Notes under the pieces: generated by a model | Told to the model about the DNA's origin: nothing | Database searches by the model: none | Seen by the model: only the letters and a program-made list of their open reading frames with translations | Source: Acetofilamentum sp. | GTDB lineage: Bacteria; Bacteroidota; Bacteroidia; Bacteroidales; JAADGE01 | Direction: 5' to 3' | DNA: 40,014 nucleotides | Assembly (NCBI GenBank): GCA_020720705.1 | Contig: DYOJ01000001.1 | Location: 1 to 40,014 of the forward strand | Position numbers and translations under genes: made by a program | Part shown: positions 6,769 through 19,686 of the stretch, in pieces | Position numbering within the stretch: the stretch's first letter is position 1 | How the letters are laid out: the number at the start of each line of letters is the position of its first letter

Positions 6769-9700
6769 ATGGAAAATTTAGTACATTTACAAAGAAAAAA
6801 ACTCCCTGCTGAGAGCAGAGGGTTTAAGTGGTTCTACCGAACCTTGTTTGCAGTGCTATTGGCATTAGTTATTAACTCTAATGCTTACGCACAGCCATAT
6901 TGTTCTTCATTGTATCCAACAAATTTTAGTTCAACCGGCTTTTATGTAAATTATTCTATAAGTGGTGCGTTTTACAATTATTACGTTGACGTTTATAGTA
7001 ATTCATCATATAGTACTAAGGTGTGGGGGGGGATTAGTAGTTCCCAATCGGGTTACTTTAATGTAACCGGTTTAGCTCCGGGTACACAATACTGGATAAG
7101 GTCAGCGATTGAGTACAGTGATGGTAGTGTTAAAATTATTTATTGTTCTGATTTTACAACTCAGACACTACTTAATCCGCCTGTGGCACTTGAGCCAATA
7201 GATGTAACAAGCAATAGTTTTACTGCAAGATGGAATTATTCAACAAACGCAACGAGTTACGAACTTCAGATTTCAACTGATCCGGGTTTTACAACTTCTG
7301 TATTTAATCAAAATGTAGGAAATACAGATAGGAGAAGTGTAACCGGCTTAAATCCGGGTACAACTTATTATTACAGAGTAAGAGCCATTAATAGTCTTAG
7401 AACTTCCGAATTAAGCAATGTTATTTCAAGTGTGTTTTGTTATGATATCAATGTTACTTCGCAAACTGTTGAAAATAATGCTTTTACAATAAACTGGGAA
7501 AATCCTGTTGGTGCTAATCTTGACAACTATATTCTTACCGTAAGCGAAAATAGCGATTTAGGCAATCCTTTATCAGGTTATAATAATATCAGCATTGGTA
7601 ATGTAAACACCTTTACTGTAAATCAAGGTATTGATATGAATACCAATTATTATTATCAAATCTCGGGACAAGAAACAGGCACTGTAATAGCAAAATCACC
7701 AATAAAGAATATTTACACCAAAACCTATGAAACCGCAAGAAACGCTCTTGCTTTTGATGGAACTGATGATTATGTAACTCTACCGGCTATAAACTTAAAT
7801 TCAACCAATTTTACCATTGAAGGTTGGGTAAAATGGAAAGATTTAAAAAATAATTCCCGAATTTTCGATTTTGGAAGTGGAGCAGGTAGTAATAATATAT
7901 TTTTATGCAATACCACAACATCTAATCAACTAGAATTTAATATCTATAATGGTGCAACGGGACAGGCATTAACCGTTAGTAATATAATTCCTTTAAACAG
8001 TTGGGTTCATATTGCCGCAGTTGCAAGTGGCGGTACTATGTATTTATATGTAAACGGAATTTTAGTCGGCACAAAAACCGGTGTTACTATACCAAATGTA
8101 AACCGAACTTTGTGCTTTATGGGCAAAAGTAATTGGGGTTCTGATGCTTACTTTAAAGGCAATATAGATGAGTTTAGGATTTGGAACGTAGCCCGCTCGC
8201 AAAAAGAAATCCGCCAAACTATGGAAAGAACTCTTACCGGAACAGAAACCGATTTGCTTGCTTATTACGATTTCAACACAGGTAACCCAAGCGGCACAAA
8301 TACCGCACTTACTACTTTATTGGATTATTCATTCTCATCAAACAACGGAACTCTGAATAATTTTGCACTCACCGGAACAACTTCAAACTGGATTGCTTCC
8401 GAAGCCGTAAACTATCCGAAACAGGAAGTTTTTTCTCCATTCGCAAGTTTCACCAACGGGCAAATGGCAGAATTTGTGGCAGGGCAACCCGATTTTACTA
8501 CCGGCACAAGCGGTGTTACTTCTCAAAAGTTAAATGGTCCTTTAGGTATTACTATTGATGCTGTGCATGGAAAAATGTATGTGGCTGATTTTATCAACTC
8601 TCGTGTTTTGCGTTTTCCATATCCATTAACAGGCAATTTTCCAACTGCCGATTTGGTTTTCGGTCAACCCGATTTTACTTCAAACTCTGTCGATAATGGC
8701 GGACTTTCCGCAAGTTGCTTTCATAATCCTGAAAATGTTGCTTTAGACGCTAATTACAATTTGTGGGTGACTGATATGGGAAATGGTCGTATTTTGAGAT
8801 TTTCAAACCCATGGTCTATTTCGAGTAATAAACCTTCTGCCGATTTAGTAATTGGCGCTGCTAATTTCACCACAGATGGCAATTTGACGCAAACTTATCA
8901 AATTCTTTTTGATGATGCAGGAAATTTATGGGCTGCTAATGCCGGAAGAGATGTAGTATATCGTTTTAATGCCGCTAATTTGGTGAGCGGAAATGCAACA
9001 CCTGATGGATTTCTCGGAGTAGTAAATTCAAGCAATTGCACACAAAATTCATGGGACAATGGTGAAGGTATTTGCATGATTGGAACATCCTTGTTTGTAA
9101 GTGATTGGCTGAATAATCGTGTATTACGTTTCGACAATGCTGCAAACAAAGCAAATTCTGCAAATGCAGATGCTGTGCTGGGACAAACCGATTTCACATC
9201 AAATACTTTCGGTTGTAATCAATCAAAATTTCATACGCTTAGCTCGATGACTTCCGATGGCAGTGGAACGCTTTATGTAACTGATTACAATAATCATCGT
9301 GTTATGATATTTAAAAATGCTGTAAACCTGACAAACGGCGCTAAAGCTTCCGGAGTTTTGGGGCATCCGGACTTTACTTCTGCCTCCTCATCTACTACGC
9401 AAAGCGGAATGAACGGACCCAGAGGTATTTTTTATGACAAAATATATAACAAATTATTGGTTACAGAGTCACTCAACCAACGTGTGCTGCAATTCGGCTT
9501 TTCGGATAATGCACTTGCTTTTGACGGAGCGAATGATTATATTGCAGTTACCGACATGTCTTTTAATGGCTCCTCGCAAATAAGTATTTCAGCATGGGTA
9601 AATATAACTAATTTTTCCAATTATGGGACAATTTTTGCAAAAATAGACGCTACAGATCATGGTGAATTATTCTTCAGAATTAGTAATAACGGTAAACCGC

Positions 9701-19686: not shown

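Follow-up and report, generated by a model that had tools for sequence, protein, structure and literature searches.

SprB and RemA of Flavobacterium johnsoniae are large surface adhesins exported via the T9SS (type IX secretion system), whose cargo is presumed to pass through the outer membrane in a folded state, from the periplasmic side. For cargo with a type A C-terminal sorting domain (CTD), PMC8545088 describes a known anchoring route via the PorU sortase and anionic lipopolysaccharide (A-LPS). In the same phylum, the BSAP and CDCL toxins of Bacteroidales are secreted pore formers that act in antagonism (PMC12853789, PMC11169675, PMC11952106). Here, we describe a gene in a 40,014-nt stretch of DNA from Acetofilamentum sp. 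(contig DYOJ01000001.1, positions 1 to 40,014 of the forward strand; hereafter, the window) that encodes a giant protein of 4305 aa, in which T9SS export signals and numerous binding-type domains accompany a large central module.

Two conclusions are firm: the giant protein is genuine cargo of the T9SS, and it is a member of a Bacteroidota family, very large and as yet uncurated, that is defined by a module without known relative. The module comprises ~1075 residues (aa 2141–3215), for which no match was obtained in Pfam, NCBIfam, PHROGs, or the sequences of the PDB, the sole exception being a sub-threshold match to CEL_III_C. An exhaustive HMMER search, in which a profile of a trimmed 10-sequence alignment of the centre was compared with the representatives of 50%-identity clusters, returned 3361 protein clusters at E ≤ 1e-3, of which 1935 passed E ≤ 1e-30, and the window protein itself scored 1294 bits over profile positions 1–910. 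Word-indexed protein searches had given 13 and 6 matches; the impression of a rare module that they convey is wrong because the exhaustive profile recovers clusters in such numbers. A typical family member is 2700–3300 aa long, with the module at residues ~580–1650 or 1000–2100, and two members that were scanned each contain CarboxypepD_reg, three LamG domains, and a T9SS CTD. The relatives bear the source-given names "LamG domain-containing protein" or "hypothetical protein", and no published description of the family was found in the literature searched.

The spread of the family was surveyed in one genome per species, using a 4-sequence alignment of the core of the module as the query; 210 family loci were confirmed, of which the best 80 were examined. 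All the named carriers among these 80 are Bacteroidota, including Prevotella, Alloprevotella, Paludibacter, Parabacteroides, Draconibacterium, and Saccharicrinis, as well as the cultured Marinoscillum pacificum MRN461, Rufibacter ruber CCM 8646, Pontibacter oryzae KIRAN, and Parafilimonas terrae DSM 28286; Prevotella sp. 885 and P3-122 are further cultured carriers. The related loci originate from marine, soil, rumen, and human-gut lineages and hold uninterrupted open reading frames (ORFs) of 2700–3300 aa wherever the contig is long enough. Two adjacent paralogues of the family lie on one contig of a rumen Prevotellaceae (L061 and L076; ONMA01000002.1, 63766–85196 and 76712–98133), and the genome RUG11961 carries family copies on two contigs (L047 and L053).

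P0015, the nearest full-length relative recovered from a different cluster, is 53% identical to the window protein and colinear with it from aa 1667 onward, while P0015, P0132, P0049, and P0072 are all colinear with it from aa ~1633–1935 to the C-terminus. This full-length colinear match places the giant protein in an unnamed Bacteroidota family with the order LamG, central module, LamG, CTD. The first 1666 residues form an extra N-terminal array (three FN3 domains, LamG1, NHL, LamG2, FN3, LamG3, and LamG4), which carries four of the seven LamG domains together with the NHL propeller and is ordered otherwise even in P0015. In distant members, the core is accompanied by other binding-type modules, such as TSP_3 repeats in P0008, GEVED and PKD_6 in P0013, and also Gly_rich_2. 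Since the core is shared while the flanking modules differ between members, the core is, as judged by sequence comparison, the constant element, and the surrounding binding modules are the variable one. An earlier note on this DNA had correctly seen a centre without recognisable domain and had pictured a giant multivalent binder with an unknown payload. That picture is reasonable, although incomplete: the centre is far from being an orphan, the protein corresponds to a standard family member (aa 1667–4305) extended by a variable 1666-aa N-terminal add-on, and the payload can now be assigned a predicted anatomy of two long amphipathic β-hairpins.

The giant gene (6769..19686, + strand) is one uninterrupted ORF with an ATG start, the stop codon being included in these coordinates, and a 12.9-kb ORF in DNA of 30–39% GC cannot have arisen by chance. 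The contig is metagenome-derived and the protein contains many repeated domain types, both of which would favour a chimeric or repeat-collapsed ORF that arose in assembly or annotation and corresponds to no genuine gene; the probability of such an artefact is nevertheless negligible. Mis-assembly is very unlikely because the internal repeats are weak, a near-identical ORF was assembled independently, and the downstream gene occurs in three separate assemblies, with the same sequence and the same neighbour genes. The repeats are only 23–45% identical at the protein level (self-BLAST) and 71–86% identical over ≤126 nt at the DNA level, the longest direct repeat in the ORF being 126 nt at 71% identity, and the DNA repeat scan revealed no tandem repeats or arrays in the gene. 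The independent ORF, of JGI metagenome 3300000234, encodes 4306 aa and is 99.65% identical over its full length. Furthermore, ORFs that are long, unbroken, and in agreement with the conserved body are carried by P0015 (4374 aa) and the many related loci, and an identical protein is already present in NCBI records.

T9SS export of the giant protein is well supported at the sequence level because a putative signal peptide occurs together with a CTD that scores above curated cut-offs. The N-terminus has the typical n-h-c layout ending in AYA/QP, as read by eye. At the extreme C-terminus, both models of the type A CTD exceed their cut-offs: Por_Secre_tail (PF18962) scored 41–44.5 bits at aa 4228–4295 (cut-off 27), and TIGR04183 scored 47 bits (curated cut-off 23). 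Additionally, the family profile matched the PDB CTD entries 8glk and 8glj at this domain. Three further CTD proteins are encoded in the window, and none of the T9SS machinery genes (PorK/L/M/N, Sov, PorU/V) lies within it.

The anatomy of the central module was predicted with AlphaFold2 (AF2). The model of aa 2141–3215 (37 sequences; predicted local distance difference test, pLDDT, 75.9) is laid out as N-terminal β-sandwiches, a core, and C-terminal Ig-like sandwiches, whereby the Foldseek matches of the N-terminal part (aa ~2170–2485) were exclusively strings of MG/Ig-like sandwiches. The core alone (aa 2476–2915, ~430–440 aa) was modelled with a pLDDT of 79.2 and a predicted template modelling (TM) score of 0.69, and its elements follow the order β1, HP1, β2, two long helices, β3, HP2, and β4, in which HP1 and HP2 are long hairpins of ~35 residues per strand. 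The family-averaged hydropathy of both hairpins alternates between hydrophobic and polar about Gly-rich tips (NLNVDLGSRIVTWAGFGAGVITETEVVAEFE and YEFGLDITLAGEVGFEIMGMGSKMKIETKTSF); Ser, Thr, and Asn make up 0.33–0.41 of the residues in the flanks, and both hairpins are devoid of Pro and Cys. Among 66 sequences picked from the representatives of the 50%-identity clusters, HP2 is 72 aa long in 60, HP1 measures mostly 84–90 aa (range 77–93), and the neighbouring loops 46–79 aa. The core further contains the invariant motifs ILRDPPG (with D2504-P2505), W.TSD.P..VG..GDVF.G, and GGQTSCPYE; the residues D2504-P2505-x-G2507, D2606, and C2888 are invariant in more than 60 sequences that are 24–58% identical to the window protein. 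Because the predicted core contains two long amphipathic β-hairpins, the model suggests insertion into a membrane. A duplication origin of the two hairpin units was considered and set aside, since hhalign aligned only 30 columns (81% probability), which probably reflects composition.

The giant gene is accompanied by a partner gene, which starts 77 nt downstream of it and encodes a conserved N-domain followed by a CTD. Of the 62 related loci with enough downstream sequence, 25 encode a homologue of the N-domain immediately after the family gene, all the closest relatives being among them, and, as a cluster, the partner was found in 43 of the 80 related loci. The giant-family gene and the partner are a conserved two-gene cassette. 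In six related loci that were scanned, the N-domain is followed by 2–13 cadherin repeats and then by a type A or type B CTD, as compared with the window partner, which is shortened to the N-domain and the CTD; examples of the homologues are found in L007 (15535–18555), L017 (15722–20488), and L054 (15668–18682). In L001, at least, a PorP/SprF gene comes after the type B form of the partner. The first ~130 aa of the partner resemble the modules A1 and A2 of the giant protein.

Based on the predicted core, we tentatively propose, as the likeliest of several doubtful readings, that the giant protein is a lectin-targeted, T9SS-delivered protein that forms a β-barrel in membranes. Following Sec export and T9SS transit across the outer membrane, the protein would be either tethered to the surface or released; the LamG/NHL array and the C-terminal modules would bring it onto a glycan-bearing target surface, where the core would then oligomerise, inserting HP1 and HP2 into the target membrane within a β-barrel. 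For the giant protein, surface display, glycan binding, oligomerisation, and membrane insertion are steps that we infer, and a binding role of LamG and NHL is expected from what those families are known to do. By analogy, the logic would resemble that of the haemolytic lectins CEL-III and LSL, but with two hairpins per protomer as in MACPF/CDC/gasdermin. It is conceivable, albeit doubtful, that the core (aa ~2476–2915) represents a new superfamily of two-hairpin β-barrel pore-forming modules, which would lack PDB relatives, ride on giant carriers that bear lectin domains and are delivered by the T9SS, and be widespread in Bacteroidota.

The outside similarity of the core is weak and confined to the hairpins, where it points to β-barrel builders. 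Among the 50 best Foldseek matches listed for the core, the secretins BfpB, PilQ, GspD, and InvG ranked first (E 3e-6 to 1e-3; ~350–430 columns of the 440-residue model), and proaerolysin, LSL (1w3a, rank 42), epsilon toxin, and Sip came after them (TM 0.05–0.12). Several observations weigh against membrane insertion. No PDB fold match was reached by the core in Foldseek, with TM ≤0.14 and a root-mean-square deviation (rmsd) ≥26 Å, and the 50 best matches listed included no structure of MACPF, CDC, or gasdermin type. The CEL_III_C model of Pfam scored 21–22.4 bits against a cut-off of 27, at aa 2783–2910 on HP2 and in 1 of 10 members, while the comparison of the family profile with PDB sequences matched LSL (1w3a, residues 177–254) to HP1 at a non-significant E of 0.41. 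These similarities to pore formers may equally reflect a shared Ser/Thr-rich β composition instead of homology. Moreover, the pLDDT of HP1 is below 50 and the extended hairpins are possibly an AF2 artefact; the segment with the highest score for alternating hydropathy lies in an Ig-like domain, and the strands of ordinary sandwiches in the protein alternate as well. A plain adhesin would account equally well for the great size, the abundance of lectin-type domains, and the partner with cadherin repeats, and the evidence for a membrane barrel consists of predictions throughout.

Within the known families, the resemblance of the core to the aerolysin, MACPF/CDC, and secretin groups is one of architecture only. 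With respect to aerolysin-type proteins, a candidate amphipathic insertion hairpin with Ser/Thr-rich flanks is present, in two copies instead of one, and no hidden Markov model (HMM) or fold match to a pore-forming module was significant. For MACPF/CDC, Pfam gave no match and the likeness is limited to how strands and hairpins are ordered; membership of MACPF/CDC/gasdermin was therefore rejected for want of an HMM match or a structure among the 50 best Foldseek matches listed, which leaves the topology as an analogy. Homology to secretins was not accepted either, as the many Foldseek matches reach TM ≤0.14 with an rmsd of ~30 Å and neither PF00263 nor any fold-level match supports it. An alpha-2-macroglobulin/complement-like identity had been raised by Foldseek matches of the centre to A2ML1, CD109, and C3/C4/C5 (E ~1e-10, TM ~0.1, rmsd 43–51 Å), and it was rejected because these are generic strings of β-sandwiches. 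A phage origin of the centre was dismissed as well, given that PHROGs gave no match and that the structure search of BFVD with the core returned nothing useful.

A solely adhesive role is nearly as likely as the formation of a membrane barrel. The giant protein could be a non-lytic surface adhesin or glycan-capture protein, a possibility about which we are also doubtful, whose LamG, NHL, FN3, and Ig modules would bind polysaccharide or cells; the central module would then be a rigid structural or oligomerisation scaffold, e.g., a four-stranded single-layer β-ribbon, by which the binding domains are kept apart or gathered together, and the partner with its cadherin repeats would be a co-displayed stalk. 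The domain content is typical of fibrillar adhesins, and the conserved partner, with its 2–13 cadherin repeats and T9SS CTD, has an N-domain like A1/A2, a likeness suggestive of heteromeric assembly at the surface. Prevotella and Bacteroidales of the rumen and gut, for which attachment to polysaccharide matters, commonly carry the family, and homology to toxins is not significant in any of the library, profile, and Foldseek comparisons. However, a plain adhesin leaves the amphipathic hairpins unexplained, whose Gly-rich tips are of fixed length and remain unpacked in the AF2 model, and the most conserved, family-defining part of the protein is the core and not the binding domains.

The hairpins might instead enter the outer membrane of the producer itself, as an oligomeric barrel similar to those of secretins or trimeric autotransporters, perhaps supplementing the attachment to A-LPS. 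This self-anchoring is improbable. Secretins are the most frequent Foldseek matches of the core, at the E-values given above, and four amphipathic strands per protomer would be reminiscent of trimeric autotransporter anchors; yet the TM of the core does not exceed 0.14, no Secretin or autotransporter match was found in Pfam, and a folded passage from the periplasmic side, as assumed for T9SS cargo, speaks against it. Type A CTD cargo also already has a known anchoring route via the PorU sortase and A-LPS (PMC8545088). A slimmer chance still is given to a core that acts as a catalytic or self-processing module, in which the Asp-Pro of ILRDPPG would be autocleaved, freeing the N-terminal array from the C-terminal anchor, or which would be an unrecognised hydrolase. 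The invariant D2504-P2505-x-G2507, D2606, and C2888 would be in keeping with catalysis, and self-cleavage at Asp-Pro has precedents in other secreted proteins, namely the GDPH motif and the FrpC self-processing module. Nevertheless, the library, profile, and Foldseek comparisons revealed no similarity to enzyme or self-processing families, and the predicted extended sheet with two helices seems to offer no obvious active-site pocket.

The remaining architecture was delineated by Pfam and NCBIfam scans, both of the entire protein and of ten 600-aa segments with overlapping ends. Laminin_G_3, of the concanavalin A-like lectin/glucanase superfamily, was found in seven stretches, above its gathering score, with 525 bits in total and 60.7–194 bits per segment, some segments containing two copies. 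The best fn3 match, of about 53.9 bits, lies at aa 137–220, and internal repeat comparison revealed that aa 248–298 are similar to the FN3 at aa 1160–1209. The NHL model PF01436 scored 38.6–50.5 bits (cut-off 20), and the blade motif "...VxD..N.RVxxF" occurs at aa 603, 665, 720, 775, 835, and 893, i.e., with a spacing of 55–62 aa; five blades were recovered by a regular expression and the sixth by eye (MYVADFINSRVLRF, LWVTDMGNGRILRF, LWAANAGRDVVYRF, LFVSDWLNNRVLRF, LYVTDYNNHRVMIF, and LLVTESLNQRVLQF), which is consistent with a six-blade propeller. The two GWxW repeats, at aa 3920 and aa 4011, are mutually similar, and the Ig-like region at aa ~3571–3800 had neither a library match nor a PDB sequence match. 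Besides LSL, the family profile matched the LamG/pentraxin, CTD, and CarboxypepD_reg/NOMO parts of PDB sequences, the matches to NOMO and carboxypeptidase M falling on the CarboxypepD_reg-like part at aa 2080–2140. The reading of the earlier note thus agrees with the scans in most of its domain calls: the single uninterrupted 4305-aa frame, the putative signal peptide and the CTD, seven LamG modules, the six-blade propeller, FN3 domains (with the weaker one at aa ~1160–1217), and the A1/A2 pair with two GWxW repeats (internal BLAST and motif search), placed by it at 18530–19018. Its CarboxypepD_reg-like call at aa 2080–2140 lies below threshold in the window protein, whereas the homologue P0036 reaches 33.8 bits, above threshold, at the equivalent position. 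All features are compiled in the table.

Table. Features of the giant protein and its partner gene, with residue ranges and coordinates in the window.
Feature	Residues (aa)	Coordinates	Strand	Basis or remark
Putative Sec-type signal peptide, ...LFAVLLALVINSNAYA/QP	1–41	6769..6891	+	Read by eye from the sequence
Three FN3 or FN3-like domains	~43–320	6895..7728	+	Pfam fn3, 2 stretches
LamG1	330–481	7756..8211	+	PF13385, 126.6 bits
Six-blade NHL-type β-propeller	~555–910	8431..9498	+	PF01436, SGL match, internal repeats
LamG2	919–1073	9523..9987	+	PF13385
FN3	~1143–1225	10195..10443	+	Weak fn3, NDNF, and Pur_ac_phosph_N matches at aa 1160–1217; repeat of N-terminal FN3s
LamG3 (boundaries approximate)	~1235–1400	10471..10968	+	PF13385; internal repeat with LamG1
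LamG4	1460–1618	11146..11622	+	PF13385
Family-conserved body	1667–4305	11767..19683	+	Colinear with complete 2700–3300-aa members
FN3-like and CarboxypepD_reg-like	~1680–1810	11806..12198	+	Family consensus motifs; no Pfam match above threshold in the window protein
LamG5	1815–1947	12211..12609	+	PF13385, 61.5 bits
CarboxypepD_reg-like	2080–2140	13006..13188	+	PF13620, 18.6 bits, sub-threshold (cut-off 32.3)
Central family-defining module	2141–3215	13189..16413	+	Without library annotation
N-part, β-sandwich domains	~2170–2485	13276..14223	+	AF2 secondary structure
Conserved core	~2489–2900	14233..15468	+	Conservation and AF2
Predicted long hairpin HP1, amphipathic, Gly-rich tip WAGFGAGV	2518–2588	14320..14532	+	AF2, hydropathy
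Predicted long hairpin HP2, amphipathic, Gly-rich tip MGMG	2783–2852	15115..15324	+	AF2, hydropathy
C-part, Ig-like β-sandwiches	~2915–3176	15511..16296	+	AF2, pLDDT 85–93
LamG6	3211–3346	16399..16806	+	PF13385
LamG7	3421–3570	17029..17478	+	PF13385, 60.7 bits; weak Laminin_G_2
Ig-like region	~3571–3800	17479..18168	+	Family consensus, conserved in the family
Module A1	3803–3910	18175..18498	+	Internal repeat with A2; similar to the N-domain of the partner
Two GWxW...KSQ..FA.Y...LGW.GSL repeats	3920–4083	18526..19017	+	Self-comparison, motif search, DNA repeat
Module A2	4109–4215	19093..19413	+	Internal repeat with A1
Type A T9SS C-terminal sorting domain	4228–4305	19450..19683	+	PF18962, TIGR04183
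Partner gene, 306 aa: conserved N-domain (~225 aa) and type A CTD		19764..20684	+	Library scan

A divergently oriented pair lies just upstream of the giant gene (3132–6402, − strand) and comprises a 796-aa sensor kinase with TPR and HATPase_c and a 292-aa response regulator, the output domain of which was not recognised; the two may act as local regulators. Such a pair also precedes the family gene in L003 of Saccharicrinis (585–3080 and 3343–4179) and is not general. Scans for sigma-70 promoters and terminators around the giant gene were uninformative, as expected for Bacteroidota. The GC content is 0.28–0.30 at window positions ~3000–8000 and ~18000–21000, as against 0.35–0.43 elsewhere, and these low-GC stretches span the regulators, the 5' and 3' ends of the giant gene, and the partner gene. 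In seven loci, a phage tail collar protein (PF07484, ~316 aa) is encoded ~28 bp upstream of the giant-family gene, e.g., at 1057–2007 (+) in L002; it is absent from the window. Two of the type A T9SS cargo proteins of the window are encoded on the − strand, one of 121 aa with little beyond the CTD (22754–23119) and one of 655 aa with CarboxypepD_reg, VWA, and CTD (24192–26159). Two ORFs had no Pfam or NCBIfam match, namely a 1540-aa ORF with a strong positive AT skew of ~0.14–0.15 (34062–38684, +) and a 535-aa ORF (65–1672, −) that adjoins an LRR and TPR protein (1690–2706, −). In the ExbB/ExbD region, the ORFs at 29771–30337 (−) and 30246–30818 (−) overlap; the latter is ExbD, and the start of the former is possibly mis-set.

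If the core does insert into membranes, T9SS-bearing Bacteroidota would possess pore formers or membrane harpoons, targeted by lectin domains, as a large class that has gone unrecognised, which would take in abundant Prevotella and Bacteroidales of the rumen and gut and would bear on antagonism, predation, and host interaction. As a new superfamily, it would constitute a previously unrecognised contact-dependent weapon or membrane harpoon directed at other microbes or eukaryotic cells. Even if the protein is a plain adhesin, the family-level module (3361 clusters at 50% identity) and the conserved two-gene cassette stand. Since the curated libraries cover neither the module nor the cassette, the module clearly invites a new Pfam/NCBIfam model as well as structural study. 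This unannotated family, by its size and reach and together with the hairpin anatomy, provides a testable hypothesis, for which the functional evidence is wholly predictive and the similarities are weak.

Compared with the described systems, the giant protein resembles type A T9SS cargo in its putative signal peptide and its CTD, its very large multi-domain build, and the CTD proteins encoded nearby. It differs from the T9SS adhesins SprB and RemA in its 1000-aa central module, which lies outside the curated families, and no link to gliding was seen here; SprB-like adhesins carry a type B CTD, whereas the CTD of the giant protein is type A and that of the partner in related loci is often type B. 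The secretins GspD, PilQ, InvG, and BfpB, in which long β-hairpins build giant oligomeric barrels, share such hairpins with the predicted core and align across most of it; in contrast to them, the giant protein has no secretin-type N-domains and no Secretin match in Pfam, and it is a cargo rather than a part of the secretion machinery. The core differs from MACPF/CDC proteins in having no Pfam match and in its hairpins, which are predicted as strands and not as helical bundles, and no MACPF signature motif was noticed on reading the sequence, although no dedicated search was made; the likeness to MACPF/CDC/gasdermin lies in two candidate membrane hairpins in the order β1, hairpin, β2 ... β3, hairpin, β4. 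From CEL-III of Cucumaria echinata and LSL of Laetiporus sulphureus (1w3a), the giant protein is set apart by two predicted hairpins instead of one, LamG instead of β-trefoil domains, a ~10-fold larger size, and export by the T9SS. It has in common with these lectins the combination of carbohydrate-binding domains with an amphipathic hairpin flanked by Ser/Thr-rich sequence, and the weak matches fall exactly on the putative hairpins, that of CEL_III_C on HP2 and that of LSL on HP1.

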